The notes under the pieces were generated by a model. The model searched no databases and was not told where the DNA came from. It worked only from the letters and a program-made list of their open reading frames with translations. Positions 1,789 to 62,788 of a DNA stretch of 64,000 nt are shown here, piece after piece (positions within the stretch are counted from its first letter, which is position 1; the number at the start of each line of letters is the position of its first letter). The DNA is from a virus, in the IMG/VR virus record IMGVR_UViG_3300030398_000007, one strand, 5' to 3'. Both the position numbers and the translations under genes were made by a program.

Positions 1789-1795
1789 GCATTAT

Positions 1796-1920: not shown

Positions 1921-1999
1921 GTTCCCGTAGCTCAACAGGAAAGAGCACTCGTCTACGAAACGAGAGGCTGACCGGGTTCAAATCCCTCCGGGGACACCA
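1921..1999 (+). tRNA. tRNA-Arg (anticodon ACG), T-stem imperfect
   Basis: Acceptor gttcccg/cggggac, anticodon stem ctcgt/acgag with loop ctACGaa, CCA. The T-arm pairs poorly, so this may be a degenerate copy of the Arg-ACG tRNA at 43129-43205. Confidence 0.6.
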
Positions 2000-4467: not shown

Positions 4468-4612
4468 CAGTGATTGGTCCTTGTCATGAGAGAAGATATT
4501 GGCCTTCAGAACTGCCAGTTAAAACATTTGAATCCATTTTATTAACCTGTGGAGATCTTCCGAGAACAATAGAAAAATCCATTGAACTGCGCAATAAAAA
4601 TCTGGAAATGCC

Positions 4613-5011: not shown

Positions 5012-5291
5012 TATGATATAAAATATACTGATTGTCATTAAATGAAAAAACTGCAGGAGGAAACACCATGAAAAAATATATACTTACAGGATTGGTCACC
5101 GTTTCTGCAACGGCAACCGTTTACGCCAAATCTCTGGCTTAGGCTTTAGAGAAAAGCAAGGATTTTGAAAAAATGCTGGACAATGGTTGTCGCTTTCCAG
5201 ACGACGAAGTTTGGTTGGTCTCGGAGGTTGACGGAGAAGTTGTTGATATCACCATTGAAGAAACAAACGATTAATTAACAGGAAAATATTC

Positions 5292-5669
5292 ATGAAAATC
5301 AATCTCGTCTCAGATATACACCTGGAGACTTACGACTGGTTCCCGAAATTTTCCGCCAGAAAAGCCACGCAAATGTTTAATGGACTGTTCTCCTGTGACG
5401 TGCTGGTTCTGGCCGGGGATATCGTTTCGAGCCCGCGCATGCTGACCGAATGGCTGGAAACGTCTCCGGTGCCGGTCGTTTATCTGCTTGGTAACCATGA
5501 ATACTACGGAAAAAGTTTTGACAATACGCCAAACGTTTTCAGAACGGTATTGCAAAAATTGTCTCATGTCCACCTGCTGGATCGGGACACGGTTACCATT
5601 AATGGTGTCAAATTCATTGGAACAACACTGTGGACAGATTTCGTTTCAAACAAATTTTTTCAGTTTTAG
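5292..5669 (+). CDS. Calcineurin-like metallophosphoesterase, C-terminally truncated
   Basis: Motifs SDIHLE, AGDIV and GNHEYY are present; the downstream GH motifs are missing. The ORF ends just before tpsB. Confidence 0.5.
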   Translation: MKINLVSDIHLETYDWFPKFSARKATQMFNGLFSCDVLVLAGDIVSSPRMLTEWLETSPVPVVYLLGNHEYYGKSFDNTPNVFRTVLQKLSHVHLLDRDTVTINGVKFIGTTLWTDFVSNKFFQF

Positions 5670-35491: not shown

Positions 35492-36811
35492 TCACCTTGA
35501 CGATCGTTCGGAATCGGTCCTTGATTTTTGTGGCCCATGTACATTCTGGAAATTTTTGGATATTTTCTCGGCCAATCCTTTTGGCACCCCACTTTGTTTG
35601 GCTATCTCTGGCCATTGCTGAACGGACTCTTCCACCTCTTGAACGATTCCGGTTATTTCTGTTCTGGAAAAATTAAACTCTTCGCCAAGATTCATAATGT
35701 TTTGCCATACCGGTTTTTTGTATTCTCCCATAACGGAAGTTGAATGCTCTCCGCCTGGACCATACGAGAACAACAAATCATATGCCGGAGAAGCCTTCCA
35801 CTTCCCATTTTTGTCCATAATGAAAGAGAAGTTTCTGGCATGATCGTCACGATTATGTGTGACAATATTGAAGACCATTTGGCGAAACAAAGAAATCGCG
35901 TTTCTTTTGTCTCCGGTTAATTTTGCGGATATTGACAGCAAGTGTTTGTAGTCGCAAACTGACTGCCCTGGTTCCATTCCCAATAGTCCGCCAAGGGTAT
36001 GCTGGTGGACCCGATTACCAAACACATTGTCGGTTCCATTTGAAGAATCTTGAACACGATCAAATCTTTGTATGCAAAATGCCTTTTGCTTCCCCACCTG
36101 AATCAGTCTTGTTTCAGGTATTGTTATACCGGCACGCCTGGCCAAAATAGAATAGGCATATTCCGTTTCGCACTCGTAATGGCCAAGGGCTTCTGATTTT
36201 ACGGGAAATTTGACAATGTGCGGCACATATCCGGCCGGTATGTCTTCCGTTCCCGAAATGACATTGTCATTTGGATCAATTCCGGCCAGTATTTTTGGCC
36301 TTGCACCTCCCGGCGAACCACCAAGTCTGGCGAGTTTTGGCAAAACGTCGCTTGCCGTTCCTTCGTGAACATGTTCTACGCCAGCCAGTAGGTCGGAAAG
36401 GTCAAGCAAGGAAGAAGATTTGTCCGATTCTGACCTGTCCGGATAATAGACGAGAGCGCCCATGCCTCTGCTGCCAATAAGCGCCAGGCGATCCAATGGC
36501 CCGACCTCGGAAGGGGAGAGACCATTTGCTGCAAGAAAACGATCGACGACAAGCCGGCCCCACCCGTCAGAAAGAGATTCCGCAAAGGCAAATGGCAGGC
36601 CCTGAGAATATCGTCCTGTTGGACCAAATACGGGTTGTTCGGAAAGCGGCAACTTAAACGGAGAAATCTGTAAGCCACTTTTGACAAACTCTTTTGAATA
36701 TTGGAAGGCCACTTTCCCGTCCACCAGCGCCAGGATCCCGACAACAATCTCCTTTTCAGGCAAAAACCTTAAACAAACAGACACTTTTTCGAGTTTTTTA
36801 AATGCAGCCAT
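35492..36811 (-). CDS. hipA: HipA-family serine/threonine kinase toxin
   Basis: GSRGMGALVYYP...LARLGGSPGGARPKIL and THNRDDHARNFSF kinase motifs; 439 aa. Confidence 0.8.
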   Translation of the reverse strand: MAAFKKLEKVSVCLRFLPEKEIVVGILALVDGKVAFQYSKEFVKSGLQISPFKLPLSEQPVFGPTGRYSQGLPFAFAESLSDGWGRLVVDRFLAANGLSPSEVGPLDRLALIGSRGMGALVYYPDRSESDKSSSLLDLSDLLAGVEHVHEGTASDVLPKLARLGGSPGGARPKILAGIDPNDNVISGTEDIPAGYVPHIVKFPVKSEALGHYECETEYAYSILARRAGITIPETRLIQVGKQKAFCIQRFDRVQDSSNGTDNVFGNRVHQHTLGGLLGMEPGQSVCDYKHLLSISAKLTGDKRNAISLFRQMVFNIVTHNRDDHARNFSFIMDKNGKWKASPAYDLLFSYGPGGEHSTSVMGEYKKPVWQNIMNLGEEFNFSRTEITGIVQEVEESVQQWPEIAKQSGVPKGLAEKISKNFQNVHGPQKSRTDSERSSR

Positions 36812-43128: not shown

Positions 43129-43205
43129 TGGCGCCCCTGGCAGGATTTGAACCCGCGACCCTCTCGTTCGTAGCGAGACGCTCTTATCCTCTGAGCTACA
43201 GGGGC
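43129..43205 (-). tRNA. tRNA-Arg (anticodon ACG)
   Basis: Reverse complement gives acceptor gcccctg/caggggc-g-CCA, anticodon stem tctcg/cgaga with loop ctACGaa, T-stem gcggg/cctgc. Confidence 0.8.
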
Positions 43206-43244
43206 ATTAAAGTTTGGATCGTCCTTCGGACTCCAGAATCTTAT

Positions 43245-43320
43245 TGGTGGGTTGCCTCGGAGTCGAACCGAGAGTCTCGCAGCTTAAAAGGCCGGGGTTT
43301 TGCCATTAAACTAGCAACCC
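43245..43320 (-). tRNA. tRNA-Lys (anticodon TTT)
   Basis: Reverse complement gives acceptor gggttgc/gcaaccc-a-CCA, anticodon loop ctTTTaa, T-stem ctcgg/ccgag with loop TTCGACT. Confidence 0.7.
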
Positions 43321-47181: not shown

Positions 47182-47228
47182 ATATGTTATCAGTTTAGTT
47201 GAACGTCACATTCAAAAGGAGGTCCACA

Positions 47229-47465
47229 ATGTTCCTGTTCCTGTTCCTGTTTCCTGTAGCCTTGGTTCTTATATTGGTTTACGCTCCGATATGGGCCAAA
47301 CGATTCGACAGCCGCGTAGCGCAATTGATTTTCTTGACGTGTGTATTGACATTTGTGGGATCTTTGGCGGCCGGCATGTTAACAGGACAATCGCCGCTGC
47401 AGGCATATATGTCTGGACTGAATGCTTTTACACAGGCTATATCTGACGCAGCTAAAGAAAAATAG
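47229..47465 (+). CDS. Small membrane protein
   Basis: RBS AAAGGAGG; 2 TM. Confidence 0.45.
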   Translation: MFLFLFLFPVALVLILVYAPIWAKRFDSRVAQLIFLTCVLTFVGSLAAGMLTGQSPLQAYMSGLNAFTQAISDAAKEK

Positions 47466-47521
47466 AGAACTATTTATTGACAAAAAAAGACTTAATCCCG
47501 TAACGAAAAAAGGAGAAAAAA

Positions 47522-47803
47522 ATGAACAAAGCCTTTGCAGTAAAGGTTTATAAAAATTTCATTGAAATTATGAGATTCCCATTTTCAGCTTTGTGTTTTG
47601 CAGTAGGAACTACAGCTGTTCTATTGACTTCCGTATTTTTGGTTGGGAAATTGGTCTGGCTTGCAGGTGATTTTTGGTGGTCTCCTGGCCGTGAAAACGG
47701 AGAATTTATCATTTTTTCCGTTGGTCTATTTATTGTTTCTGCACTCCTTGAATCTGTCGTTAGAGCCGTTAATCAAAAGGCAGAAGACATTGTTTTTTTA
47801 TAG
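47522..47803 (+). CDS. Small membrane protein
   Basis: RBS AAAGGAGAAAAAA; 2 TM. Confidence 0.45.
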   Translation: MNKAFAVKVYKNFIEIMRFPFSALCFAVGTTAVLLTSVFLVGKLVWLAGDFWWSPGRENGEFIIFSVGLFIVSALLESVVRAVNQKAEDIVFL

Positions 47804-48013
47804 CCTCATTTTTCTATTCGACGAATATTGTTGGGTTGTCTTTTGGGGTTTCTCCAAAAGGTCCTGTAGAATATATTCAAGCTTTTCTATTTACTCTCTT
47901 AATCTTTGGATTCATGACTTTTGCAATATGTTTGATAAGTGAAAAAACGGAATGAAATAAAGTCTTCATAAAATGGCAACGTTTAAAAAACACTCTTGAA
48001 AGGAGAAACAATC

Positions 48014-48334
48014 ATGAACAGTTGCATGGAAAAAAGTATCGAACAAATTCGTGAAACAAATTTCAGAAACGAAAAAAGAAGAAAGGAGCGTTTGGATTTT
48101 GTACGAAACATTCTCAAGAAAAATGACTGGGCTATTTCTGAACTTGAAAGAGAGGGGGTGGACATGTCCGAAATTGTCAGAATCATAAACAGGTGTGAAG
48201 GTTCTGACATTACGGTTCATGAGGTTGAATGTGTCAAAGACGAACGAGACAGGCTTTGCGAACAAGTATTTCTATTTGTTGTAATTATAGTTTATGGGGG
48301 GGTTGTTGTGTGGTTATACTCAAAATTAATATAA
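48014..48334 (+). CDS. Hypothetical protein with C-terminal TM
   Basis: RBS AAAGGAGAAACAATC preceding ATG at 48014; preceded by the duplicated 80-bp leader. Confidence 0.4.
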   Translation: MNSCMEKSIEQIRETNFRNEKRRKERLDFVRNILKKNDWAISELEREGVDMSEIVRIINRCEGSDITVHEVECVKDERDRLCEQVFLFVVIIVYGGVVVWLYSKLI

Positions 48335-48468
48335 GTGAAAAAACGGAATGAAATAAAGTCTTCATAAAATGGCAACGTTAAAAAAACACTCTTGAAAGGA
48401 GGAACAATCATGAACGGTTGCGCAGTTTTCGTAGTTCTTTTATTTGTGTTTACTGTAGTTTTTGAGGT

Positions 48469-48831
48469 ATGGACTCTTTTACACTTTCACCTCCTTTAGG
48501 TTTTGTAACTGGGGCGTTAATTATGGTGCCGATAACGTATCGCAACCAGTCCTTTACTGAATTTTTAGTGATTTATTCATTTCTTTCCCTACTTTTGGGA
48601 TATATAGAATATGCTAAAGCTCCTCTCTCAATTTCCCAAAAAGCATTTGTTATTTCAGGAGCAGGAAGCGATATAAAAGCAAAAAATGACGCTGTAAAAT
48701 GGATAAGAACTCGCAGAACGGCTTCTGAAGATCAAGTCGTCCTGGAAGAACAGAAACTGGAACAAGAAAGTCAGAGTGATTACGAGAAATCTTTAGTCTC
48801 TCATTATGTCAATAAAAAAGGGAGATCCTAA
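48469..48831 (+). CDS. Hypothetical membrane protein
   Basis: ORF with TM helices. Confidence 0.35.
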   Translation: MDSFTLSPPLGFVTGALIMVPITYRNQSFTEFLVIYSFLSLLLGYIEYAKAPLSISQKAFVISGAGSDIKAKNDAVKWIRTRRTASEDQVVLEEQKLEQESQSDYEKSLVSHYVNKKGRS

Positions 48832-49181
48832 TGCCGTATTGGAAAATGAACATTTTTGATATTCTTGCGCTGCTATGGGTTGGTTCAGGTTTGGGCCTTT
48901 TTTGGGAATCCGGGAATAGTCTGTTGCTGCTTCCTGGACCCTTTTGGTTTTTGATTGGGGGAGTATTCTTGGGGCTTGCAATTCAGAGGACAAACATACA
49001 TGGTGTTTTTTAAGAAAAAATCAAAACTGTTTTTAGGCTTGGGAATTCTTTTTGTCTTTGCCTCCATACTTCTCAAGTCGGCAACGGGTTTATCAGACAT
49101 TATTGGGTGGCTAGGCTTGGCTTTTTCTGGACTGGCTTTTATTGGATTGTGGAACACAAACAACACAGAAGGAAACGACCA

Positions 49182-49372
49182 TGAACATTAAAATTATGGC
49201 TTTAGGTGGGATTTGTGTTTTGGCTCTGGCCGGGTGTGGCAAATTAGACAGAACCGTGGCCCATTACAGAGGGTGGTCCGAGATTTGTATCCACGGAGTG
49301 CAGTATCTCCAGTTTTCGAGTGGCGCCTCGGTAGAATATACGCCGGACGGACATGTAAAAAATTGTCAATAA
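49182..49372 (+). CDS. Small lipoprotein (lipobox LAGC)
   Basis: MNIKIMALGGICVLALAGCGK; RBS GGAAACGACC weak; terminator follows. Confidence 0.45.
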
Positions 49373-49405
49373 ATGGGGCCACTTTTCGTGGCCCTTCTTT
49401 TTTCA
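49373..49405. terminator. Bidirectional rho-independent terminator (ggggccacttttcgtggccc + T-run)
   Basis: Hairpin flanked by A- and T-runs between convergent genes. Confidence 0.6.
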
Positions 49406-49440: not shown

Positions 49441-51291
49441 TTATTCGTTGTTCCGATCCTTTATAAACCCAAACGCCATTTTTTCCGCACTTGGAAGTGT
49501 CGAGTCAACACCTGTCAATTCCTTCAAATAAAACGCCTTTACGTCGACCCAGACACTCCTCAAATCCTTTTTCGCCCGCAGCCCTTTCTCGACTGTCTCC
49601 AGCCCGGCATTTAAAAAGGGGACTTTGTCTGGCGTTGTTCCCATTTCTTTGGCAAAACGCTTGTGCATTCTGGCAAAGATCGGATTGGCATGTTCCGGTT
49701 TCGGTCTTGGCGTTTCGATCACTTCAAAACGCGACTGCAATGGTTCGTCTATTTTCAGAATGTTATTGGCCGTCGCAATCAGGTTCAAGCTTGTCACGTC
49801 AATATGCCCTTCAAGAAAGTCGTCGTACAGGTTGCTTGCATTTCGGTCGAGATACGCAAGAAGTGCCTGTTGTGCCGTTCCGTATCTTTCTTCCGTGTTC
49901 TGTTTGTCGATTTCGTCCAGGAGAAACAACGGATTGGCCACGCCGCATGAGGCCACAAAAGACAGTATCCGGCTTGGTTTCGGCTTCTTCCACCACCGGC
50001 TCAATGAGCTGATATATTCGACTGAAGAAGACGCTCCGGCAAAACTAAAGGTATCAAACGGCAGTCCGATAAGCCCCGCAAAGTCGGCCGCCCATTCTGT
50101 CTTCCCAATACCTGGAGGTCCGACCAGCAAAATCGGAGGAATGGTGATAACGGCTTGAGTTTTTGACTGTTCGGCAAAATAGATCCGGCCACGAAGACAC
50201 TGCAGCACCCATGCCGTGATTTTGGACAGCCATGGAAATTCGGTGTCCATGGCTTTTTGAATGTCGGCCAGTTTCTCCGTTCCTCCGGAAAAGGTGGCCA
50301 GTGGAATCCCCTTGCCTAACGGCAAGCTTTCCAGAATCCTGTCGAATTCTCCCTTGCCTGATTCTCCCTCATAAGCGTTTGCGTGTCTGATAAAAATATG
50401 TGTTGATTCAGGCAATGTTTTATTCACGCTTGAGCTTGTTGAGGCTATTTCTGGAGAACTTGACATTGTCATTTTTCCAGAGCTTTTTTGTGTATTATTG
50501 GTTTCCAAAGTGTTGTCGTCTAGAATTTCTTCTAGCCATAGATCATTGTCAGAGCCAGAGCATGGGAATTTGTCTTCCACATATTCTTCTGCCAACCACA
50601 TATTTCCATTTTCTATGACGATTTCTTTTGTTTGTTTCTTGTTGTCAGTATAGGTCGAAAATGAGAACTGATTTTCACTTGCGTTTTGGTTTTTCGTTTT
50701 ATCAATACTGGAGCGCCAGGAAACGGTCTTTTTCGTCAATAGGTTTTTTTCTGTATGCTCCTTTAAGACAAGAACGGCCGCCTTTGTATCATAACCCAAA
50801 GCCAATAAGGCCGTCGTAAACGGTACTGGAAACTCGTAAAGCTCAATACGGCTGTTTATGTAAGTTGCCGCGTTCATGACAATGAGCTTGGGACGGAATT
50901 CGTTGCTCAATGAATCCTGTATTTGTTGTTTAAGTTCTTGTGGAGACAATCCCGGAGATAAGATTTGCACACGAAGATTCTTGCTCGCCAATTTCTTTTC
51001 TTTGACTGAAGCATTCTCTAGAAGGGACTGAAGCGCCTTCGAAATAATCGCTTCTGTTGCTCCGATAGAGATATAAAGGACTTGTGCCGGAGGCTTCTCT
51101 TCCGAATCAAAAATTTCATACAATTGGTTGTTCGCGCCGGCAACGCATGTGGCAATAGCCAGACCGACCAGATTGTTGTCCGAATCGTCCGGAAGAAGAA
51201 CAGTACCAAGAGTTCCCTTTTGGAAACCTGAAAAAATTTCGTCGTCAACATTAGACGAATTGTCGAGGAGTTCTTTAACGTCAATGTTCAT
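49441..51291 (-). CDS. Lon-like AAA+ ATPase without protease domain, N-terminal RecA/KaiC-like degenerate domain (paralog 1)
   Basis: ILLVGPPGIGKTE Walker A, NPLFLLDEIDK Walker B identical to Lon, LIATANN sensor-1, LQSRFEVIETPRP arginine-finger/sensor-2 region; ends ~80 aa after the AAA+ module with no S16 protease domain. Confidence 0.7.
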   Translation of the reverse strand: MNIDVKELLDNSSNVDDEIFSGFQKGTLGTVLLPDDSDNNLVGLAIATCVAGANNQLYEIFDSEEKPPAQVLYISIGATEAIISKALQSLLENASVKEKKLASKNLRVQILSPGLSPQELKQQIQDSLSNEFRPKLIVMNAATYINSRIELYEFPVPFTTALLALGYDTKAAVLVLKEHTEKNLLTKKTVSWRSSIDKTKNQNASENQFSFSTYTDNKKQTKEIVIENGNMWLAEEYVEDKFPCSGSDNDLWLEEILDDNTLETNNTQKSSGKMTMSSSPEIASTSSSVNKTLPESTHIFIRHANAYEGESGKGEFDRILESLPLGKGIPLATFSGGTEKLADIQKAMDTEFPWLSKITAWVLQCLRGRIYFAEQSKTQAVITIPPILLVGPPGIGKTEWAADFAGLIGLPFDTFSFAGASSSVEYISSLSRWWKKPKPSRILSFVASCGVANPLFLLDEIDKQNTEERYGTAQQALLAYLDRNASNLYDDFLEGHIDVTSLNLIATANNILKIDEPLQSRFEVIETPRPKPEHANPIFARMHKRFAKEMGTTPDKVPFLNAGLETVEKGLRAKKDLRSVWVDVKAFYLKELTGVDSTLPSAEKMAFGFIKDRNNE

Positions 51292-51494
51292 GTGGCGCCT
51301 CCAAAATATTACCATAGTAGTTGTTATACGATATAATGATCGTACCACAAACTATTCTGGTTGAATCAAAAAGTGGAGACGTTACAGACTGTTTTAAAAT
51401 AGCGAGCGAATGGAATTTTGAGACAACACCATTGGGGCGGCAAAAAACAAAAGACACTTTCGCCGCCACATGGATTTAACCGGCATGGAGAAGA

Positions 51495-53396
51495 CTAAAA
51501 ACCGATCGTCTTTTTTGTTCCATTTGGCATACGGACACTCGTTCCGGTAATTTCTTCAAGAAACGCGGCTCTCATGTTTTGCCAGATTTTTCGTAGGTCC
51601 TCTTCTTTTGTCAAACCTTGTTCGATTGTTTTGACAACCTTATCTGAAATGTGAATATCTTCTGTATCGACGTTCATTTCTTTAGCCAAACGTTTACGCA
51701 TGTTTTTTAGTATTGGTGGAACATGCTCCGGTCGAGGTCTTGGTGTTTCAATGATCTCAAGTCTGGACAACAATGGTTCGTCAATCTTTGACATGTCGTT
51801 GGCTGTCATAATCATATTCAATTTAGACACGTCGATATAACCTTCCAGAAAATCGTCAAATAAATGAGTGGCGTTTCTGTCGAAATAGGCCAAAAGGGCT
51901 TGTTGTGCCGTACCGGCATATCTGTTTTGGCTTTGTTTGTCGATTTCGTCCAATAAAAGTAAGGGATTGGCGACCTTGCAATCTGCAACAAATGACAAAA
52001 TCCGGCTTGGTGTTGGCGTTTCCCACCACCTGCCAAAAGAAGAAACGTTTGCATATCCAATTGACGTACCGGCAAATCCGAACGTGTCAAAAGGAACATT
52101 CAAATATTTTGCAAATGTTGCGGCCCATTCTGTTTTTCCAATTCCTGGAGGTCCAACCAGCAAAATGGGAGGAACTGAAATAACAACTGGTCGATTGGAT
52201 TTTTCGGCAAAATAAAGTTTCCCCTGCAATGATTGAACAATCCACGTTGTTATTTTTTCAAACCATGGAAATTTTGTGTCCAGTTTGTTTCTTATTTCCT
52301 GGAGCTTTTTTTGACCTCCTGAAAATGTAATAAGAGGAAGTTTTTTTCCGGCAGGAAGATTCATTGTGATTCTTTTAAAATCATGAAATCCATTTCTGCC
52401 AGATTCATACGGTTTAAAGCTTTTGACAAAAATATGTGTCGGCATAGATTGTTCGACTTCTTGCATAGTTGTAGAATCTACATAGACAATCTTGTTTGTT
52501 TGTTCCTCTTCTTTTCTCTCTTCGTTTTTCTTTCCCGATCCTCCTTCGTCGGCACTTCTCTTTGCGGACAATTGGTCTTTCAACTTTTCCATTAAATCAA
52601 GTTTTTGCTTCAATAAGTCGATTTGTTCTTTTGAATAATTTTCTTTCTTGATTGATCTATTAAATTGTTTTGTAACGCGTTTAATCTTTTCATTTTCAAA
52701 CACAAAACTCTCTTCATATTTTTTGTCTCCCTCCCAAAAAAAACATGTGTATTTCATTGGGCTTGCCAGAGCCATGGTGTTGTCCACATACAGTCTCCAC
52801 TCGAATGGAGGCTTGACGGGTCCGGTTTTTTCATTCAACTCCCTCAAAAGAAGAATGGAAGAACCGGTTCTTATCGAAAAAGACAAGAGACCATTAGCCA
52901 ATTTGTTATTGAACCCTTCTTTTTCGACATTGATATTTATATAATCGCTGGCGTTTATGACGACAAGATCGGGAGTGCCTCTTTCTTCGCTTATTGAAAA
53001 AAGTGTTTTGGTTATCTCTTCAGTCGAAATGGTCGGAGACATTGTTTCAACGAAAAACAATTCTTGCAGAATCTCTTTTTGAGATTCCGTAAGGTCATTT
53101 AAAAATCGACGCGTTGCGCTTTTAACTGTGGTTTCTCTGTCTCCAATCGAAATATAAAAAACCTTTCTGGTTCTTGGAGCACTTTTATGTAATGAAAAAG
53201 GTTTTTTGGACGAAAGCATTCCGGCCAATTCCGGGTGGCCTCCCGACGCAGTCAGAGCAATCGCTAATCCAATCATATTTTTGTCCGGACTGTCCCCGTG
53301 GAGAATAACTCCAAGCTCCCCTTTGTAAAACCCAAGAAAAATCTCGTCTTTGACGGGATCCGGTATTTGCAGCAATTTATTGATATCCAGGCTCAT
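51495..53396 (-). CDS. Lon-like AAA+ ATPase without protease domain (paralog 2)
   Basis: ILLVGPPGIGKTE, NPLLLLDEIDK, IMTANDMSKIDEPLLSRLEIIETPRP; same architecture as paralog 1. Confidence 0.7.
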   Translation of the reverse strand: MSLDINKLLQIPDPVKDEIFLGFYKGELGVILHGDSPDKNMIGLAIALTASGGHPELAGMLSSKKPFSLHKSAPRTRKVFYISIGDRETTVKSATRRFLNDLTESQKEILQELFFVETMSPTISTEEITKTLFSISEERGTPDLVVINASDYININVEKEGFNNKLANGLLSFSIRTGSSILLLRELNEKTGPVKPPFEWRLYVDNTMALASPMKYTCFFWEGDKKYEESFVFENEKIKRVTKQFNRSIKKENYSKEQIDLLKQKLDLMEKLKDQLSAKRSADEGGSGKKNEERKEEEQTNKIVYVDSTTMQEVEQSMPTHIFVKSFKPYESGRNGFHDFKRITMNLPAGKKLPLITFSGGQKKLQEIRNKLDTKFPWFEKITTWIVQSLQGKLYFAEKSNRPVVISVPPILLVGPPGIGKTEWAATFAKYLNVPFDTFGFAGTSIGYANVSSFGRWWETPTPSRILSFVADCKVANPLLLLDEIDKQSQNRYAGTAQQALLAYFDRNATHLFDDFLEGYIDVSKLNMIMTANDMSKIDEPLLSRLEIIETPRPRPEHVPPILKNMRKRLAKEMNVDTEDIHISDKVVKTIEQGLTKEEDLRKIWQNMRAAFLEEITGTSVRMPNGTKKTIGF

Positions 53397-53482
53397 ACAA
53401 CCTCCAAAATTCTTAAAATGTTTGTCTTTAATTTTGGTGTAAATATATCATAAACAAATATATTTTTCAAGGATATAAACAT

Positions 53483-54133
53483 TCAGTCCAGAACTAAAAT
53501 CCTCCGGCGCTCCAATTGCCTTTTGCATTCTTCTGTATACACGGGATAGGCTTGTGCAATTGCCGCATAAACCTTTCTTCGGATTTCAGCCAATGCCAAA
53601 GACGCTCCGACCTTTCCGGCAATGATCTCCAGGGAATGGTCATATGACGTCAACTCGTGACGGATAAAATTAACCACAATCCTGTCGAGAAAATTTTTGT
53701 CGTTGTTTTTCTTACTGGCAAATTCGCAATCATGGCCGTATTCCATGCTGATATATGCTTTGTGATCGTTGTATGCGTCAATGGCCAGGCTTTTGACTTT
53801 TTCGAACGGCAAGATTTTGACCTGGATTTTCAGTTTCTTAATTTCGGCCATAAGTGCGTCCTTTTTTGTCGTAACGGCTTTTCGCGCAGACGTTTTTCGA
53901 ACGTCCGCCTTGGCTTTTTCTTCCAGAAATTCTGGTGTCTGGCTGACGAATTGGACTCTTGTTCGAAGAAACAATTTTATTGGAGCGGCTGAGGCGAATA
54001 TTGGGTTTGTGGCGGTTTTATCAGGGGCTTGGAGAAATTTCTGGATCAATTTGTCCGTCCACCCCTCGGCCTTGAGACCTTTCAGGCTGACGTACTGTTC
54101 TTTTTCTTCTTGAGATCTTTTTGGTCGCGCCAT
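53483..54133 (-). CDS. Hypothetical basic protein, first gene of the Lon-like operon
   Basis: ORF upstream of and co-oriented with the two AAA+ genes. Confidence 0.35.
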   Translation of the reverse strand: MARPKRSQEEKEQYVSLKGLKAEGWTDKLIQKFLQAPDKTATNPIFASAAPIKLFLRTRVQFVSQTPEFLEEKAKADVRKTSARKAVTTKKDALMAEIKKLKIQVKILPFEKVKSLAIDAYNDHKAYISMEYGHDCEFASKKNNDKNFLDRIVVNFIRHELTSYDHSLEIIAGKVGASLALAEIRRKVYAAIAQAYPVYTEECKRQLERRRILVLD

Positions 54134-54812: not shown

Positions 54813-55946
54813 ATGGCAAAACCAAAAAATTTTAAAAAATTTGTCGCAAGCAAAGAAGATTGTTTTTCCGTATACAACGCTTCGTTTCACCTTTCCGGAA
54901 GGCTAAATCATTCGGAATCTTCTATTGGTATTCGCTACGGTAAAAACGAGGGAATCCTTTTGCCGTATGTTTGTGCTAGAACAATAATTGGGTCTGGTGA
55001 ACTTGTTCCAACGGATTATTTAAACGGTGTGCACGGAGAATCTTTTGGGCAAAAGGTTAGAGATACATTGCATGTTAGAAATCTTCTACTCGATCCCAAA
55101 CTATCGGACGAGCAAAAGAAGCTCCTTCCAACAGAAGAAACCCAACGGACAATACGTGACGCATGGCTTTCCTGGAACCCAAGCCATAAATCCAATGACA
55201 TAGACCTGTTTGATCCAAATTGTAAACAAATTCTTTTACCAGAGAAACTTTCTGACTTTACGAATTACAAGTCTTACACCCCACTTCCTGCTCCAGGCAT
55301 TTCAAAAATGCTACACATAAAATGCAACGATTTTTCAAATACATTAACAGAGTCTAAGGAAGAGAACAAAGAATCTACAACGAATTGCTTCAAATTCTGT
55401 TCAATAGCTTATGGTGGGACTAAACCGCAAAATGTTACGACAATGAGTATAGTCAGAAGCGCGATTGTTGGATTAGCTCCAAAACATAACAAGACTTATG
55501 CAAAATTGTTACGAGCTTTGTATTCTAAAGAAGTTTTTTCGTTATATAACTTCAAAGAAGTTATGGAATCATATTATTCGTGGTTTTTATCAAGAAATAA
55601 CAAGAACAAACATATTGAAAAAATAGAAAATGTTTTGATTGAAAAAATAGTTAAATCAGTAAGTGAACAAATCGAAACTTTTTATAACTCACTATCACAA
55701 AATTTTGATACAGAAGAGATCAAATATGTCACAAATAAAATAAATGACAGATTGCTGTCTGGGATTTGTGATCCTGCTTCCAGAGATTTTGAATGGTTCA
55801 ATATATTATCTTCTGCAATAGTAGAAGAAATGGCTTCTTTCAAATTCGGAAAAAACGGAGAGACAATCTCGTATTCTATTGTTGATAGGAATCGGGTAAG
55901 AACAATCGTTTATAAAACAATTTTAAAACAATATAGAGAAGAATAA
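54813..55946 (+). CDS. cas8f: Cas8f/Csy1-like large subunit (short, 377 aa)
   Basis: First gene of the operon, 1-nt overlap with cas5f. Assignment rests on synteny with csy2-csy3-cas6f; no strong motif recognised. Confidence 0.5.
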   Translation: MAKPKNFKKFVASKEDCFSVYNASFHLSGRLNHSESSIGIRYGKNEGILLPYVCARTIIGSGELVPTDYLNGVHGESFGQKVRDTLHVRNLLLDPKLSDEQKKLLPTEETQRTIRDAWLSWNPSHKSNDIDLFDPNCKQILLPEKLSDFTNYKSYTPLPAPGISKMLHIKCNDFSNTLTESKEENKESTTNCFKFCSIAYGGTKPQNVTTMSIVRSAIVGLAPKHNKTYAKLLRALYSKEVFSLYNFKEVMESYYSWFLSRNNKNKHIEKIENVLIEKIVKSVSEQIETFYNSLSQNFDTEEIKYVTNKINDRLLSGICDPASRDFEWFNILSSAIVEEMASFKFGKNGETISYSIVDRNRVRTIVYKTILKQYREE

Positions 55947-56815
55947 TGACACAATTTTTGCATGTTTCTCACCTTAAAGTAACAGGAGCAAATGTTTTGT
56001 CTGCCTCCTGGCTTGTAAGTCCAGCGCAGGTAATTCCGGCGCTTATGTTTTCCCACAATATGGGACGCAGAACTGGATTCTCACCAACAGGAGTGGCAAT
56101 TGTTCACCATGACTATAATCTGGTAGGCGAATGGTTTTGTGGTGGATTTGGAGCTTATCAACGAACAGAAATTGGGGCTGGCGTTTCTGGAAACAAGGTT
56201 CGTGGACCAAGCCAACCAACGATACTAGCAGACATGGAGTTGTCTCTTTACATAGAATTTGAAGGGGATCCCCCTTCAGAATCGGCACTAAAAAAATTTT
56301 TCGAAGGTGGCATAAGGTTTTCTGGCGGTACTGCACAGATCAGAAAACCAAATTCTGGATATCGCCAAATTGTTGAGGGGGTTAAAAAAGAGTCTGGATT
56401 TTGGATTGTTGACAGAACGGATCTAGTCGACCCCAAACAACCATTAAATTCTATTGTAAACAATATTGGGTTCAAAAACTTCAATAAAGGAAAAGATTCT
56501 TGGCTGTGTCCAGCAGTTTTGGCGCATGTAATGGCTGAAGGCCCTATTGGTACTGGAAGAGAAGATTATCCGCAATATTACGGAGAACCTTGTGTTGGTC
56601 TTGTCCAATATATTTCCGTACACGAGTATAAGGATTTTTGTTCGTCTCAAACAGAACTGTCAAACAGAACAACGCCAATTTTATGGTGGGGAACAATTCC
56701 TGTTTGGAGAATGAACTGGAATGAAGTTCCGGATCTTGACGAGAATCCAGTCAAGATTTTTTTTGTAACACAATCTTTAACACCCATTAAACGAAATGGA
56801 GATCTAAATGTCTAA
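55946..56815 (+). CDS. cas5f: Cas5f/Csy2-like
   Basis: Position between cas8f and cas7f with overlapping stops/starts; length ~289 aa. Confidence 0.5.
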   Translation: MTQFLHVSHLKVTGANVLSASWLVSPAQVIPALMFSHNMGRRTGFSPTGVAIVHHDYNLVGEWFCGGFGAYQRTEIGAGVSGNKVRGPSQPTILADMELSLYIEFEGDPPSESALKKFFEGGIRFSGGTAQIRKPNSGYRQIVEGVKKESGFWIVDRTDLVDPKQPLNSIVNNIGFKNFNKGKDSWLCPAVLAHVMAEGPIGTGREDYPQYYGEPCVGLVQYISVHEYKDFCSSQTELSNRTTPILWWGTIPVWRMNWNEVPDLDENPVKIFFVTQSLTPIKRNGDLNV

Positions 56816-57953
56816 AAAAATCAAAGATTTGCCAGGGGTTTTTGCTCTCACAAAAAGACTTGTTGTAAGCGACGGCGTTTTCACGGCAACAACAGATAAC
56901 GGTTCAAGACAGCCCGTATTCGTTTTTAAAACAGGGCTTCGGGGAACACAGAATCTAAATCCAATGGCTTCAGACAAGGACGAAGTTGGAAATGTGCAGG
57001 AAACACATGTCGCAAAGCTTCCAAATGATACCAAAAACTATACTGTCACATTTTCATTGGGAGCACTCCCGTTGACAGACGTAATTTCGGCATGCGCACA
57101 AAAGCCTGACGAAAAACATATCGACGGAAACGATATGAGACATGCTATTAATACATTTATGACAAGTAATGATTTCGAGCAACTTGTGCTTGAGATTGGT
57201 TGTCGTTTCGCAAGAAATATAGCAAATGGTAGGTGGCTTTGGAGAAATCGGGCAGAAGCCAACTCTGTTAAAATTTCAGTTGCGGTTTTTGGAAGCGGTC
57301 AATCAAAAGGATCCGAAAACTCAATTGAGGTTGAGTTCTATGCACTGTCTATGCCTTTTTCTGATTTCGAAAATTACTCAGAAGACGAAATAAAAATTGG
57401 AAAAGCTTTAGCCAATGGTTTTTTGGGCATTGAAAGGTTCAAGATACTAGTTTCTGCGACTATTGTTCCGTCTGTCAATGGTCGTATTGGAGTATATCCG
57501 TCCGAGAACTATCTCGCCCACAAACCAAAGGGATTTGCCAGATCTCTATATTATATTCCAGGCATAATTCCGGAAGGAGCTGGTTCCGAGATTTGTCTTG
57601 GACAGGCCGCTCTCAGATCTGAAAAAATAGCAAATGCGCTCAGAACATTTGACACTTGGTATCCTGAGTTTTCAAGTATTGGAAAACCACTGGCTATTGA
57701 AGCGAATGGTGCAAGCCTCGATCACGACAGATTCTTTAGAAAAACCTCTGGTAAAAACAAAGATCTTAGCAATAGCAAAGCTTCGGCCTTTACTCTTTTT
57801 TCTCGTTTGGTTTCCGAACCAGAAACATTGACAAAAGAAGAAAAGCTTTTTCTTGTCAGTATCCTTATTCGTGGGGGAGTCTTTCCTGGTGTAAAAAAAG
57901 AAAAGAGAAATAAAAAAACTGAGGAAGACGAAGAAAATGAATCTTCCACCTAA
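56808..57953 (+). CDS. cas7f: Cas7f/Csy3 backbone subunit
   Basis: ANGRWLWRNR motif characteristic of Csy3; 381 aa. Confidence 0.75.
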   Translation: MSKKIKDLPGVFALTKRLVVSDGVFTATTDNGSRQPVFVFKTGLRGTQNLNPMASDKDEVGNVQETHVAKLPNDTKNYTVTFSLGALPLTDVISACAQKPDEKHIDGNDMRHAINTFMTSNDFEQLVLEIGCRFARNIANGRWLWRNRAEANSVKISVAVFGSGQSKGSENSIEVEFYALSMPFSDFENYSEDEIKIGKALANGFLGIERFKILVSATIVPSVNGRIGVYPSENYLAHKPKGFARSLYYIPGIIPEGAGSEICLGQAALRSEKIANALRTFDTWYPEFSSIGKPLAIEANGASLDHDRFFRKTSGKNKDLSNSKASAFTLFSRLVSEPETLTKEEKLFLVSILIRGGVFPGVKKEKRNKKTEEDEENESST

Positions 57954-57983
57954 AATAAACCGTCTAAGAAAAAGGAGGAGACA

Positions 57984-58541
57984 GTGAAGCCTTTAGCCTA
58001 CGTTGATTTTATTTTATCGGAAGCTGGAGACATGGCGATCCCTGTCCTTGCAGGGAAAGTTCTTGGAATATTTCACAGGGTGTGTTCTTTAGGTCATATA
58101 ACTTATGCAATGTCCTTTCCTCGCATGCTAAAGACGGACGATCCTGCGGAAATATTTGGCACGTTTAGGTTTTTTGGCGAGACCAAAGAGGACTTGGCAG
58201 ATCTTGTTAAAAAAATGAAAAATGATTTTTTGATTAGAGATTATACAATTGTTGGGCGGCCAAGAAGCGCACCTGAAAGTTCAGATACATGGGTTAGCTT
58301 TACTCGTTTTCGTATACCAAAAGAAATTAGATCTGGACGATTAAACAATAGATCTCGTGAATACAGATACAATTTGGCGGCAAGTATGCCGTTTATTCCT
58401 TGTTTTAGTTCGTCCACTCAACAAAATTTCAGGATCTATATCGAGACGTTAACCGAAAAAGACCCAAAAAAAGGTGGCGGCACTTTAGACACCTATGGTT
58501 TGTCACACAAAAGAGATCCAATTTTTTTGCCATTGTTTTAA
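57984..58541 (+). CDS. cas6f: Cas6f/Csy4 crRNA endoribonuclease
   Basis: 185 aa; C-terminus GGGTLDTYGLSHKRDPIFLPLF matches Csy4 ...GGFTCYGLSKGGFVPWF; GTG start with AAAGGAGG RBS. Confidence 0.8.
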   Translation: MKPLAYVDFILSEAGDMAIPVLAGKVLGIFHRVCSLGHITYAMSFPRMLKTDDPAEIFGTFRFFGETKEDLADLVKKMKNDFLIRDYTIVGRPRSAPESSDTWVSFTRFRIPKEIRSGRLNNRSREYRYNLAASMPFIPCFSSSTQQNFRIYIETLTEKDPKKGGGTLDTYGLSHKRDPIFLPLF

Positions 58542-58565
58542 CAAGCATACAAAGGACTTAAATGT

Positions 58566-59585
58566 ATGGGAGACACAAAAACAACAAAGAGAGCCGTACT
58601 CTTATCAAAACGTGCCAATATTTTTCTCCTGGAACGAGTAAAAGTTCAGGTCAACGACAATCGCGTTGTGTATCTGACGGATACAATGGAACCAATCGAA
58701 AAACTTTTTAACATTCCGGAAAAGAACACGATTGTCGTTTTACTTGGGCAAGGAACGTCTATTACGTCAAGAGCTGCCAGAATGCTTGCAGAATCTGGTG
58801 TGCTTGTCGGCTTCTGTGGAACGGGCGGATCTCCATTTCTTTCGGAAGAAGATATGACATTTCTTCCTTACTTCAGCGAATACCGTCCTGTTGAATATAT
58901 GCAGCAGTGGGCAAGTCTTTGGTTCGACGAAACAAGAAGGTTGTCTGCCGCCAAAAAACTTCTTAGTTTGAGATTGGAGTATGCCGAAAACATATGGGCC
59001 AAACTTGGGATCTCTGGAATTGTAGTCCCAGGATCATTATTGGATAAAGTGGAATCAGGTATCGCTGCAGCAAAAACAACAACAGAGCTTTTGTCCATAG
59101 AAGGCAATTACATAAAACAGTTGTATCAATATTTGGCAGAAAAATTTGGCGCCAAAGATTTTGCCCGTGTCCATACACGTACTACTGACAGAGACAAAAT
59201 GCTTGCCTCAATGCCTGTATCTTCACAAAAGGTCAATAAATTGTTAACGATTGGCAATTACTTTGCATATGGAGCCGCCGGGTCTGTATTAACGGCTATG
59301 GGAATCAGTTATGCGTTCCCGTTGTTACACGGAAAAACCAGAAGAGGTGGACTAGTATTTGATTTGGCCGATCCAATAAAAGACGCATTTGTACTACCAC
59401 TTGCGTTTTTCATGCAAAAACAATCTCCTAAAGAGTTCAGAGACGAATTGTCGAGCCGATTTGTGGATCACTTGGTTATGGACGACATGTTTGACTTTAT
59501 TGAAAAGATTTTGGCCAATGACAAAAATAAGAGGGGTTGCGAAACGTTAGTTTCTGGTTTAACCGAAAAAGAAGCGCACACATGA
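58566..59585 (+). CDS. cas1: Cas1 integrase (I-F type)
   Basis: SKRANIFLL...NIPEKNTIVVLLGQGTSITSRAARMLAESGV closely parallels I-F Cas1 SKRANLYYL...NIP.ANTTSLLLGTGTSIT. Confidence 0.85.
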   Translation: MGDTKTTKRAVLLSKRANIFLLERVKVQVNDNRVVYLTDTMEPIEKLFNIPEKNTIVVLLGQGTSITSRAARMLAESGVLVGFCGTGGSPFLSEEDMTFLPYFSEYRPVEYMQQWASLWFDETRRLSAAKKLLSLRLEYAENIWAKLGISGIVVPGSLLDKVESGIAAAKTTTELLSIEGNYIKQLYQYLAEKFGAKDFARVHTRTTDRDKMLASMPVSSQKVNKLLTIGNYFAYGAAGSVLTAMGISYAFPLLHGKTRRGGLVFDLADPIKDAFVLPLAFFMQKQSPKEFRDELSSRFVDHLVMDDMFDFIEKILANDKNKRGCETLVSGLTEKEAHT

Positions 59586-62500
59586 AGATTACATTTGTAT
59601 CCGAATGTCAAAATAAAGCCTTAAAACGCACCAGAAGGGTATTGGACGGTTTTGCCACACGGATAGGGGCAAAAACATGGATCGCACACATAACGTTAGA
59701 CGGGTTGACTTCTGTTAGACAAGAACTTTCAAAAACTGCGACAAAAAATACGGCTGTAGCCGCTTTCGATTTTGGCAAAAAACACGTTGAACTATTATGG
59801 GTTGTTGGAAATGCAGAGGCTTTTTCAGACAAAGGTGTTTATCCAGTGGCTACAATTAGCCGGAAAAGCTCCGGTAGAATTATCTCGCCAGTGTCACGAA
59901 TTATTGGACTTTTAGGTGCCATATGTGGACTCAGTCACGATTTAGGAAAAGCGTCAAATGGATTCCAGAATATGATCCGAAATTCTGTTCCTGACAATGC
60001 CAGGCATGAATGGCTTTCGCTTTGCATGCTGGACTCAATATTTGGATCAGAAAACCGGATTACGCTAGCGCAACAAAAAACTTGGGTCGAACATTGGAAC
60101 AATTTGACTGTCAGGAAGAATGCGCCGGACATGGTAGACAGCGTATTTAAATCCGTACAGGTTATTGTGTCTACACACCATGCACCATATGCTCCAGAAA
60201 AAGACCTTGGTCCACCAGACTCTACGCACCACTTGCGGGAACGTACCATTGATTTAGACAACGAACAGAAAAAGCTTTTTTCAGAAAGCCACCAGGAGGA
60301 CTTCAACAAAATTCTTTCAAAAATAGTAAAAACATTTTTTAGGGCGAACAGACTTTCCAACAACTATCTCGAATCAATAACAAAATGGTCTGTTGCCGGA
60401 TATTACGAAGGAATTACCTTGCTCGCCCGCGCCGGTCTTATTTTAGCAGACCATACAATATCTTCCGGAAAAAGCCCTTTAAAAAAAGAATGCCAGGTTT
60501 GCAAAACGACGACAAAATGGCAATTGTGCAAAACGTGTATCTACGCAAATACCAAACGTAATGGCAATTCCGAAGTAAGGACTCCGGATCAACCTCTTTT
60601 CTGGCACCTTGGCGCTGTAGGAAAGACTGCTGGTGAATACGCGTTTAGATATGGTGAGCTTTTAAACTCAAAAAATGCGTTTCAGGGGTTTTCGGAAAAA
60701 AGTCTTGAAGTCTTGCGTTCAGAGACTGAGGTTCCTGTATTTTTATGGCAAAATGAAGCGGTTAATGCCGTTAGGAAATTTAAAAACGAGAAAAACACAA
60801 AAGGCCCGGTTTTAGTATTTAACCTTGCAGGAACCGGAAGCGGAAAAACTCTTACGAACATGAAATTGGTTGCAGCATTAACGCCTGAAAAAAGTCCAGT
60901 TAGAGCTACAATTGCATTGAATTTAATAACCCTAACGACACAAACAAAGGAATCTCTTGTTGAAAATAGCGGAATTGAAGTTGGAGACGTTGAGAGAATC
61001 GGAGGTTCGTACACAAGGATCCAGCTTTTAAAATACTTAGGCAAAAATGGTGAAGTCAAAGAATCTGAGGACGGAGAACTGTTTTTAGAAAATGAAAAAT
61101 TGTTATCAGGAGAGGTTGAAGAAAACAAAGTTTACCGTCTGCCAGATTGGTTGAAAGATTCGTTGAACCTTGGTCCATATCGTGCATATTATGGACTTCT
61201 CGGAGCCCCATTACTTGTAACAACGACAGATCATATTATTTCTGCCGGAGATTTGTGTGAGCAGGGCCACCACGCACTGTCGCTGATTCGTGTTGCCACT
61301 AGTGATCTTATTTTAGACGAAATTGACGAGTATGATCCAGACGCCTTAATCGCCATTTTGCGTATTGTTAGACTTTCCGCTTTTTTTGGAAGGTCTGTCA
61401 TTTGTTCTTCTGCAACAATTCTTGACTCTGTTGCTAAAGCTGTTTATTCGGCTTTTGAATCCGGACTAAACCTTAGACGGTGTGTTCTTGGAGGCGATTA
61501 TTCCGTCAATGTATCCATTGTAGACGATTTGTGCGAACCTCAAACTTTTTCGTTTCAGTCAGGAAATGAGTCTCTGTTTATAAAAGAATATGCAGTCAGA
61601 CTTCTTAAAATTCGTAAAAAACTTTCAGAAAAATCAGTCACCAGAATTATGGAACTTGTAAATTTCAAGCCTACAAGAGAAGATTTTATCGAATCTATTG
61701 TCGAAACAACAAAACGAATGCACGAGAGACATAAATGGAATGGTACTATTGACGGAGAGATAACGCCCCCTGTATCTTTTGGCGTTATACGTATTGCAAA
61801 TGTCAATACATGTCAAGTTGTTGCTAGTGAAATTGCAAAAAGAATGCAAGAAAAAGCCGTAGTTGCCACATACCATGCTAGAGAAATTTTGCTTCAAAGA
61901 ACACTTAAAGAGGTTGAACTCGACACATTGTTGATTAGAAAAAATCCAGAGGTTTGGAAAAATCTTGGAAGATCTCGTCAAGTTAGAAAAATTTTGGAAT
62001 CAGGAAAATATCCAGAAGGCGTTATTTTTATTGTTGTCGCAACACCTGTTGAAGAAGTTGGTCGTGATCATGATTTTGATTGGGGAATTATTGAGCCCTC
62101 TTCGGCCAGATCTATTATCCAGTTAGGAGGCAGGGTAAACAGACACAGACGCCACGAAATTCTAGAACCAAATATAGGCTTGTTGAAATTCAATATGCGT
62201 CATATAAAAAATCTCGAAAATGGCAAATCTGACGATCGTTGTTTTGTTCGTCCGGGGTTTGAAAATAAAAATGTGTTATATCCACATGACGTCGAGAAGC
62301 TATTTAAATGGTCGAGGGAACAAGTTCTTCCTGTCGATTCCAGATTGGCTGACACCACTATTGAAAATACATTTGCCCATTTGGATAATGAAAGCATTAA
62401 TAAAAAACTTGTAATGGCTGAAAAAGCTAGAAACAAATTCAATACGGTTTCTTTATGGAGCGTTCAAGCTTTTTATAAAGATAATTTGTTGAGGAATATA

Positions 62501-62788
62501 CAAAAACAAGAATCATGGAGATTATCAAGAAATGAAATAGGTGCACCGATTTTACAAAAATTGAAAAAAACCACCAGGGGGTGGGAATATGTAGACGAAT
62601 ACAACTCCAATGTTTATACAGAACCATTGCCAAATATGTGGCTTTATAACGAGGCCGAAAACCTTATTGAGATTGGAGAACAGTATAACAAAAGCGAATC
62701 TTTGGGAGCAAAAATTCAAATATATAATCCTGACTTTAAATATTCGTACAAAATCGGATTTGGGTTTTGCGAAGAAAAAAATTTTTAA
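59582..62788 (+). CDS. cas2-3: Cas2-Cas3 fusion (Cas2 domain + HD nuclease + SF2 helicase), I-F type
   Basis: ATGA overlap with the cas1 stop; N-terminal Cas2-like KITFVSECQNKALKRTRRVLDGFATRIG, HD motif LSHDLGKASNGF, Walker A NLAGTGSGKT, DExD LILDEIDEYD. Confidence 0.85.
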   Translation: MKITFVSECQNKALKRTRRVLDGFATRIGAKTWIAHITLDGLTSVRQELSKTATKNTAVAAFDFGKKHVELLWVVGNAEAFSDKGVYPVATISRKSSGRIISPVSRIIGLLGAICGLSHDLGKASNGFQNMIRNSVPDNARHEWLSLCMLDSIFGSENRITLAQQKTWVEHWNNLTVRKNAPDMVDSVFKSVQVIVSTHHAPYAPEKDLGPPDSTHHLRERTIDLDNEQKKLFSESHQEDFNKILSKIVKTFFRANRLSNNYLESITKWSVAGYYEGITLLARAGLILADHTISSGKSPLKKECQVCKTTTKWQLCKTCIYANTKRNGNSEVRTPDQPLFWHLGAVGKTAGEYAFRYGELLNSKNAFQGFSEKSLEVLRSETEVPVFLWQNEAVNAVRKFKNEKNTKGPVLVFNLAGTGSGKTLTNMKLVAALTPEKSPVRATIALNLITLTTQTKESLVENSGIEVGDVERIGGSYTRIQLLKYLGKNGEVKESEDGELFLENEKLLSGEVEENKVYRLPDWLKDSLNLGPYRAYYGLLGAPLLVTTTDHIISAGDLCEQGHHALSLIRVATSDLILDEIDEYDPDALIAILRIVRLSAFFGRSVICSSATILDSVAKAVYSAFESGLNLRRCVLGGDYSVNVSIVDDLCEPQTFSFQSGNESLFIKEYAVRLLKIRKKLSEKSVTRIMELVNFKPTREDFIESIVETTKRMHERHKWNGTIDGEITPPVSFGVIRIANVNTCQVVASEIAKRMQEKAVVATYHAREILLQRTLKEVELDTLLIRKNPEVWKNLGRSRQVRKILESGKYPEGVIFIVVATPVEEVGRDHDFDWGIIEPSSARSIIQLGGRVNRHRRHEILEPNIGLLKFNMRHIKNLENGKSDDRCFVRPGFENKNVLYPHDVEKLFKWSREQVLPVDSRLADTTIENTFAHLDNESINKKLVMAEKARNKFNTVSLWSVQAFYKDNLLRNIQKQESWRLSRNEIGAPILQKLKKTTRGWEYVDEYNSNVYTEPLPNMWLYNEAENLIEIGEQYNKSESLGAKIQIYNPDFKYSYKIGFGFCEEKNF

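Follow-up and report, generated by a model that had tools for sequence, protein, structure and literature searches.

Lon is the textbook fusion of an unfoldase and a peptidase in one polypeptide chain, and the locus described here raises the question of what a Lon-type ATPase might do once the peptidase has gone. The locus occupies positions 49,441 to 54,133 of a 64,000-nucleotide (nt) stretch of DNA from the IMG/VR virus record IMGVR_UViG_3300030398_000007, the whole of which is called the window below, and consists of gene C followed by genes B and A, the last two encoding paralogous ATPases. The first-pass annotation of this DNA had described a three-gene operon with two tandem Lon-like ATPases without a protease domain and had proposed a defence or conflict system. 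The reading preferred here, which judging from the sequences has about an even chance of being correct, is that A and B are an unfoldase or remodeller without a built-in peptidase, carried as cargo by a mobile element. The Lon-derived AAA+ motor has a novel domain partner and no peptidase.

The Lon-type module and the C-terminal tail

The presence of a Lon-type AAA+ module in both proteins, as first proposed, was borne out by matches to the LonA equivalog model TIGR00763 (E values of 3e-32 for B and 1e-23 for A), which covered only about positions 207-554 of the 795 in the model; both proteins also matched Pfam AAA and Lon chains in the PDB (E ~1e-21). The scans likewise agree with the initial observation that the S16 Ser-Lys peptidase domain (PF05362) is missing, as no Pfam or NCBIfam match to it was obtained for A or B. 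The Lon N-terminal substrate-binding domain (PF02190) gave no match in either protein, and an AAA_25-like domain stands in its place. Thus, A and B have the AAA+ module in common with LonA (TIGR00763; PDB 7p6u, 7sxo, 3m6a and 4ypn) but neither of its flanking domains. From sensor 2 to the protein end there are 31 residues in B and 38 in A, and the end coincides with the boundary between the AAA and peptidase domains.

The Walker A motif, D483/E484, N533, R545, R602 and W458 (B numbering; Table 1) are invariant in all family members, and the AAA+ motif residues of B are also invariant across the shorter protease-less relatives described below. W458 aligns with the pore-loop tyrosine of Lon, and an aromatic residue is therefore kept in a loop that reads R-W-W-E/K in the A/B family and R-T-Y-I in LonA. 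Because all AAA+ catalytic residues and the aromatic pore loop are intact, A and B appear to be catalytically competent and to have retained the feature that grips the polypeptide. Upstream of the AAA+ core, B contains a conserved domain that is the counterpart of the helical region N-terminal to the Lon core. It is preceded by a linker that varies in length among family members and is the least conserved part of the family alignments; in the structure model of B, the predicted local distance difference test score (pLDDT) is <50 at residues 285-314.

It might be asked whether these are simply truncated or decaying Lon genes, or an artefact of assembly, and a relative at locus L110 is indeed split by an in-frame stop codon. 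This explanation has next to no chance of being correct. A/B genes with identical stops are found on independent JGI, Logan and 2009 Sanger ACXJ01 contigs (the last a 31-kb contig from acid mine drainage that bears the genes together with a Csy3 gene), which argues against gene ends created by assembly and thus against full-length Lons cut by assembly error, a possibility raised at the outset. In addition, architecture and tail are common to five or six lineages, and all catalytic AAA+ residues are intact. In a comparison of A with its 92.6%-identical ortholog at locus L001, the ratio of non-synonymous to synonymous substitution rates (dN/dS) was 0.12 overall, 0.07 in the AAA+ module, 0.14 in the N-terminal domain and 0.20 in the linker. 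A is under purifying selection, and the value of 0.14 indicates that this includes the N-terminal domain, in spite of its presumed inactivity (see below). On the strength of the identical ends and of the low ratios in the structured domains (0.07-0.14), an assembly artefact or a truncated Lon was rejected.

The tails of the proteins might preserve the point at which the peptidase was lost. Canonical Lon peptidase domains start with ..K(I/V)G(V/I)VxGLAWT, the tail of A ends in ..MAFGFIKDRNNE and that of B in KKTIGF. By this comparison, A and B would thus retain just the first two to three residues of strand 1 of the Lon peptidase, in the form of an (I/F)GF stub. Conservation of the stub reaches well past the A/B family: the motif [IVLMFC]G[FY] is present within the last 12 residues of half of the protease-less relatives (17/34), compared with 2/166 full-length Lons and a background of 1.5% in other windows of 12 amino acids (aa).

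This conservation raises the possibility that A and B are stand-alone unfoldases that use the (I/V/F)GF stub to dock a separate peptidase, for example the ClpP of the host, as ClpX and ClpA do, and that proteolysis is thereby redirected to targets picked by the dead helicase domain. ClpX, ClpA and HslU also are unfoldases without a peptidase of their own, and the short hydrophobic-Gly-aromatic motif is of the type by which Clp ATPases dock ClpP; the stub would thus resemble the IGF/IGL loop sequences of ClpA and ClpX. However, the motif is at the extreme C-terminus in A and B and in an internal loop in the Clp-type ATPases, and the sequence relation to the latter is at the level of the AAA+ superfamily (E ~1e-3 to 1e-5). 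The enrichment at the extreme C-terminus and the disorder of the tail in the structure model, which would be expected of a docking peptide, are in favour of docking, and a precedent is given by the Clp ATPases, which engage the pockets of ClpP by conserved tripeptide loops, as reported in PMC8745299. Nevertheless, the stub is explained equally well as an inherited remnant of the first peptidase strand, about half of the protease-less relatives are devoid of the motif, and no peptidase partner was found in the window: neither 47 other open reading frames (ORFs; E<=1e-4) nor the 10 nearest neighbours contain a Lon_C- or ClpP-like domain. Docking is therefore regarded as unlikely.

The helicase-like N-terminal domain

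Taken on its own, the Pfam assignment of the N-terminal domain is marginal (AAA_25, E 0.009). When the N-terminal halves were used for an exhaustive profile search of 1.84 billion representative proteins, only five proteins reached E<=1e-10, all of them family members or fragments thereof, followed by about 30 proteins with E values of 2e-8 to 1e-3 that aligned to residues 3-185. All of the scanned matches (29/29) were AAA_25 proteins, and some of them were fused to DnaB, Prim-Pol or PriCT domains. The domain thus has a RecA fold homologous to that of RSF1010 RepA and other hexameric AAA_25 (PF13481) helicases of plasmids and phages (PDB 1g8y), but in A and B it is fused to a second ATPase, of the AAA+ type, and its catalytic motifs are replaced. 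Walker A (GxxGxGK[ST]) has become HGDSPDKN in B, LPDDSDNN in A or a similar sequence, the catalytic Glu has become Gly ('ISIGD'), the Walker B Asp has become Asn ('VVINA') and the HH..K motif has been lost, in each case in 6/6 family sequences. The domain keeps the RepA fold, but with all four elements replaced it is predicted to be catalytically dead, so that it could not work as an active helicase. A degenerate RecA-like fold had been recognized from the start, but the stretch then quoted as the P-loop ('GLAIA...') is the helix that follows the P-loop, and the 'ISIG' stretch is the very site at which the catalytic Glu of AAA_25 helicases became Gly.

A reciprocal arrangement exists in RadA/Sms, which combines an active RecA-like ATPase with an inactive Lon peptidase-like domain. 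Like RadA/Sms, A and B join a DnaB/RecA-type domain to a piece of Lon, but here the RecA-like domain would be dead and the Lon ATPase domain apparently active. No description of a RecA-type tier stacked on an AAA+ tier was found in the literature.

The descent of this domain also suggests a part in the replication or maintenance of the element itself, for example as a loader or remodeller whose helicase-like domain makes contact with a RepA/DnaB-type helicase ring. The closest relatives of the domain are plasmid and phage replicative helicases, some of them fused to primases, one of the short relatives is a megaplasmid protein whose gene has replication initiator and ParA genes nearby, and homologs of C adjoin a primase-helicase and a resolvase. 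Such a role is nevertheless doubtful: presence of the ATPase varies among related elements (L103 is devoid of it), which is more in keeping with accessory than with core genes, none of the loci has an adjacent helicase gene, and the aromatic pore loop of the Lon type points to the threading of polypeptides.

Gene layout, relatives and genomic setting

Three genes on the same strand were found as first described (Table 1), including the basic 216-aa protein that precedes the ATPases, but a single operon is not indicated, as the genes are separated by 86 nt (C-B) and 203 nt (B-A) and a promoter-like site lies between C and B. The length of 633 aa stood for B, but the 635 aa given for A correspond to its longest ORF (49441-51348, minus strand). 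The start of A is most likely the ATG at 51291, yielding a 616-aa product: GGAGG is located 7 nt upstream in a context nearly identical to that of the B start, the alignment with B begins at this codon, and relatives and the JGI gene calls on identical contigs (616 aa) agree with it. A and B are paralogs, as proposed, with 41% identity over the full length, compared with the original estimate of about 45%.

Table 1. Positions of the genes, domains and motifs of the locus, of other features of the window, and of short relatives at other loci
Feature	Position	Strand	Description
Gene C	53483-54133	(-)	216 aa, basic, isoelectric point 9.6
Promoter-like site	53442-53470	(-)	TTGAAA-17-TATATT, extended -10 TG; in the C-B gap; consensus match only
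Gene B	51495-53396	(-)	633-aa ATPase; apparently dead RepA-like domain and Lon-type AAA+ module
B residues ~15-245	52662-53354	(-)	Predicted inactivated AAA_25 / RSF1010-RepA-like RecA-fold domain
B residues ~246-318	52443-52661	(-)	Helix (256-283), then disordered K/E-rich linker
B residues ~319-404	52185-52442	(-)	Conserved pre-AAA domain; invariant THxF and FPW motifs
B residues 405-620	51537-52184	(-)	Lon-type AAA+ alpha/beta domain and lid, from alignment to Lon chain 7p6u
B Walker A, G415-T422	52131-52154	(-)	
B pore loop, W457-W458	52023-52028	(-)	
B other AAA+ motifs			Walker B D483-E484, sensor-1 N533, Arg finger R545, sensor-2 R602
B tail, ending KKTIGF	51498-51536	(-)	Putative remnant of beta-strand 1 of the Lon peptidase domain
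Gene A	49441-51291	(-)	616-aa paralog of B, architecture as B
A Walker A	50098-50121	(-)	
GC-rich hairpin	49375-49395		Terminator-like on both strands; directly downstream of A
Type I-F cas set	54813-62788	(+)	csy1-csy2-csy3-cas6f-cas1-cas2/3, complete
12-tRNA array	930-1999	(+)	Met, Gln x2, Thr x3, Lys x2, Arg x3, Ile; spacers 5-49 nt
tRNA-Arg/tRNA-Lys pair	43129-43320	(-)	Separate from the array
GIY-YIG-like gene	4613-5011	(+)	132 aa, 83% identical to the L001 protein; ~44 kb from A/B
Truncated metallophosphoesterase	5292-5669		Follows the GIY-YIG-like gene
Short relative P0043	L104, 8001-9056		355-kb phage-like contig; 8-nt overlap between the ATPase stop and the following gene
Short relative, 547 aa	L020, 9131-10774		Ends RKRIGF; viral contig of 38 kb that also encodes thymidylate synthase and lysin
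Short relative	L192, 5599-7050		Acetobacter megaplasmid; near replication initiator and ParA (replication and partition genes)

The family is very small. A word-indexed search of 5.8 billion clusters, together with the exhaustive and profile searches, yielded the full-length members A/P0002, B, P0003 (L002), P0212 (L109) and P0244 (L191), and the architecture is represented by about five lineages among the 1.84 billion representative proteins. The split gene at L110 (2-1696) is closely related to P0244, which is intact; its single in-frame stop falls between the RepA-like domain and the remainder and could reflect a pseudogene, a sequencing error or recoding. No family member was found in reference genomes of 185,579 species (one per species, the window's own genome not among them), or among 50,697 phage and 72,556 plasmid records, no further one in the scan of IMG/VR viral contigs, and none among the matches listed for the metagenome contigs; the matches in these scans (for the metagenomes, those listed) were ordinary Lons or short AAA-only proteins. 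In a neighbour-joining tree built from the AAA+ halves, without support values, the family is monophyletic, A groups with P0244 and P0212, and B and P0003 branch deep. The deep branch positions suggest that A and B are old paralogs that were brought or kept together in this lineage. A recent tandem duplication was considered and rejected on the basis of the same tree.

Beyond the family there are protease-less Lon-like proteins of 330-550 aa, annotated generically as 'AAA family ATPases', that are encoded on phage contigs and plasmids and do not have the RepA-like domain; examples are P0043, the 547-aa protein of L020, P0006, P0038 and WP_077932027. As in A and B, a Lon-derived AAA+ module is present and Walker A is preceded by an FPxF motif, and about half of them share the +x(I/V)GF stub with the A/B family, including P0043 and the L020 protein, both of which end in this motif. 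A described function for them was not found in the literature. As a separate observation, a hypothetical protein of 820 aa from Moraxella phage Mcat3 (L193, 3864-6326) contains a Lon-type AAA+ region; its gene is placed where morons typically are, between the tail genes and attL.

The trio does not hold up as a unit, a result that the first-pass annotation had itself named as counting against its proposal: the relatives found so far never have more than one ATPase gene, and C homologs are found where the ATPase is absent. In each of the four relatives with flanking DNA (L001, L002, L109 and L191), a single ATPase gene is present and an intact C is missing, and the A+B pair was seen in none outside this lineage. 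In L002, L109 and L191 the upstream genes are unrelated; L001 has the A ortholog and no B, and all that remains of a C-like gene there is a decayed piece of its 3' end, no more than 375 nt upstream of the ATPase and only weakly matching (50% over 30 aa, interrupted by stops). For C itself, only 12 homolog clusters were found. The homolog in L103 (1662-2306, 74% identical), likewise in a phage-like element, has no adjoining ATPase, and those in L097-L102 (~2990-3568, 43% identical) are on phage-like elements from which the ATPase is absent, where a resolvase gene follows immediately and a primase-helicase gene is close by. C consists of an N-terminal alpha/beta domain with a long helix, followed by a helical C-terminal domain with a conserved FLDRI(V/T)VNFIRHxLTSYD motif; the orphan family of C-like proteins shows the invariant signature FLDRIxVNFIRHxLTxYD...GKxG...YP..EC.RQ. 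No Pfam, PHROG, PADLOC or NCBIfam family matched C, and the fold of its N-terminal domain gave only weak matches, to the XPA/Rad14 DNA-binding domain. C would thus be a neighbouring, probably DNA-binding gene of the mobile element and not an obligate partner of A and B.

The neighbours of the relatives are nearly all orphans on annotation. The recurrent one encodes a GIY-YIG-like protein of about 130 aa and lies at most 2 kb downstream of the ATPase in L001, L002 and L191, accompanied by a 187-214-aa orphan in L001 and L002. In the window its homolog is far removed from A and B (Table 1), which suggests that the gene set flanking the ATPase in relatives has here been rearranged or interrupted. 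Around it, at 4470-5669, the last 50 codons of the 214-aa orphan are also present, and this block is directly in front of a ShlB/FHA two-partner secretion pair.

The window as a whole is a mosaic of accessory genes that includes a phage-type Dam, two TnpB, a DUF6036 nucleotidyltransferase, HipA, RadC, DUF5131 and methyltransferases as well as the two-partner secretion pair. The Dam, TnpB and type I-F cas genes pointed out at the start were confirmed by profile matches and the small hydrophobic ORFs by eye, and the reading of the setting as a mobile or defence-rich island beside type I-F cas genes is supported; no CRISPR array was detected anywhere in the window by Tandem Repeats Finder. Tight tRNA arrays, such as that in Table 1, are typical of large phages and mobile islands. 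Several further features were observed. Genes for a CCA-adding enzyme, lengthened at its N-terminus by about 335 aa of no assigned kind, a DRB0094-type ATP-dependent RNA ligase and RtcB form a tRNA/RNA-repair cluster (13866-15770, 20280-21359 and 25444-26643), a protein with an RF-1 domain is encoded elsewhere among the scanned ORFs, and the HipA-like kinase is at 35492-36811. Between Dam and A (47199-49372) there are six to seven small ORFs of 60-120 aa with hydrophobic stretches, one of which (49142-49372) has a lipoprotein-like signal, MNIKIMALGGICVLALAGC; no family match was obtained for them, and L001 retains only two of these small hydrophobic ORFs.

In such surroundings a self-contained anti-phage defence system would be a rival proposal, in which C senses the DNA of the invader and a hetero-hexamer of A and B executes the response. 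The complete cas operon next to the locus and the abundance of TnpB, HipA, methyltransferase and nucleotidyltransferase genes are compatible with it, as are the weak resemblance of C to the XPA DNA-binding domain fold and the variable presence of the ATPase downstream of C-like genes, as expected of cargo at a hot spot. However, both the trio and the A+B pair are missing from all relatives outside this lineage, homologs of C exist without the ATPase, the nearest shorter relatives are phage-encoded, and similarity to known defence families is generic. PADLOC 2.0 gave no full-length match for A, B or C, the best hit (DolB, E 1.9e-6) being confined to the Walker A region; the weak matches (IetA, DolB, TRIP13 and PDC-M37B) reflect general AAA+ similarity, and ten short relatives scanned with PADLOC gave only matches of this kind. 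The initial defence proposal is therefore not supported and is considered improbable.

The precedent invoked for it, the BrxL protein of BREX, does not carry over, as no BrxL match was obtained in PADLOC at E<=1 and, of the 60 ORFs in the window that were compared with Pfam or NCBIfam, none had a BREX domain (PglX, PglZ or BrxC). BrxL resembles A and B in being a Lon-related protein in a defence context, but its Lon-related part is the C-terminal peptidase-like domain, and thus A and B lack exactly the part on which its relation to Lon is founded. For protease-less Lon-like ATPases in defence, the literature yielded only reviews of BREX and BrxL.

Proposed mode of action and significance

The preferred reading, an unfoldase or remodeller carried by a mobile element, can be cast as the following model. 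A and B would derive from LonA by a clean loss of the peptidase and an exchange of the Lon N-terminal domain for a dead RepA/DnaB-type (AAA_25) domain, and their subunits would assemble into an ATP-driven ring, a two-tier hexamer. The dead helicase tier might serve as a collar or as a recognition platform for DNA or for a protein of the replication type, and the Lon tier would thread and unfold the target, which would then be freed or handed to a separate peptidase. As two deeply diverged paralogs are encoded side by side, A and B might build mixed rings or have different targets. As accessory cargo, the genes would travel on a phage- or plasmid-like element and would serve the conflict between element and host or the maintenance of the element. 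This setting is indicated by the phage-type Dam, TnpB, GIY-YIG-like and metallophosphoesterase genes, by the location of C homologs next to resolvase and primase genes, and by the short relatives of phages and plasmids. A role in conflict is possible, but equally so are counter-defence and maintenance of the element; the genes for the shorter relatives are carried by phages and by a plasmid.

Several points weigh against this model. The structure model of B has a predicted template modelling score (pTM) of 0.53, leaving the relative placement of its domains uncertain, and the tree of the AAA+ halves is devoid of support values. The mobile-element origin is deduced from gene content rather than from element boundaries, most relatives are on short metagenomic contigs with neighbourhoods that are only partly visible, and the metagenome scan may have missed family members. 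Furthermore, Lon-type AAA+ modules also bind DNA, and the substrate may therefore be a nucleic acid.

A more far-reaching version would be an unrecognised class of 'plug-in' unfoldases on phages, plasmids and islands that dock a peptidase ring of the host, such as ClpP, by the IGF stub; in the A/B family the dead RepA ring would be a bait, by which the replicative helicase or helicase loader of a rival element is delivered to destruction. This is very unlikely, but if true, it would represent a weapon of conflict that is targeted at replication.

The practical weight of these results is limited, as the family is tiny and stems from uncultivated organisms. Nevertheless, about 35 protease-less Lon relatives, several of them encoded by phages, are now defined for experiments, and the conserved C-terminal stub and the short relatives borne by phages are the most testable leads. 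In the A/B family the textbook fusion of unfoldase and peptidase appears to have been undone: the peptidase was shed, a stub was kept at the break point, and an inactivated domain of a replicative helicase was recruited. If the tail is a docking element, motors of the Lon type could serve two-component proteases as ClpX does, and mobile elements would have gained a means to redirect the proteolysis of their hosts.

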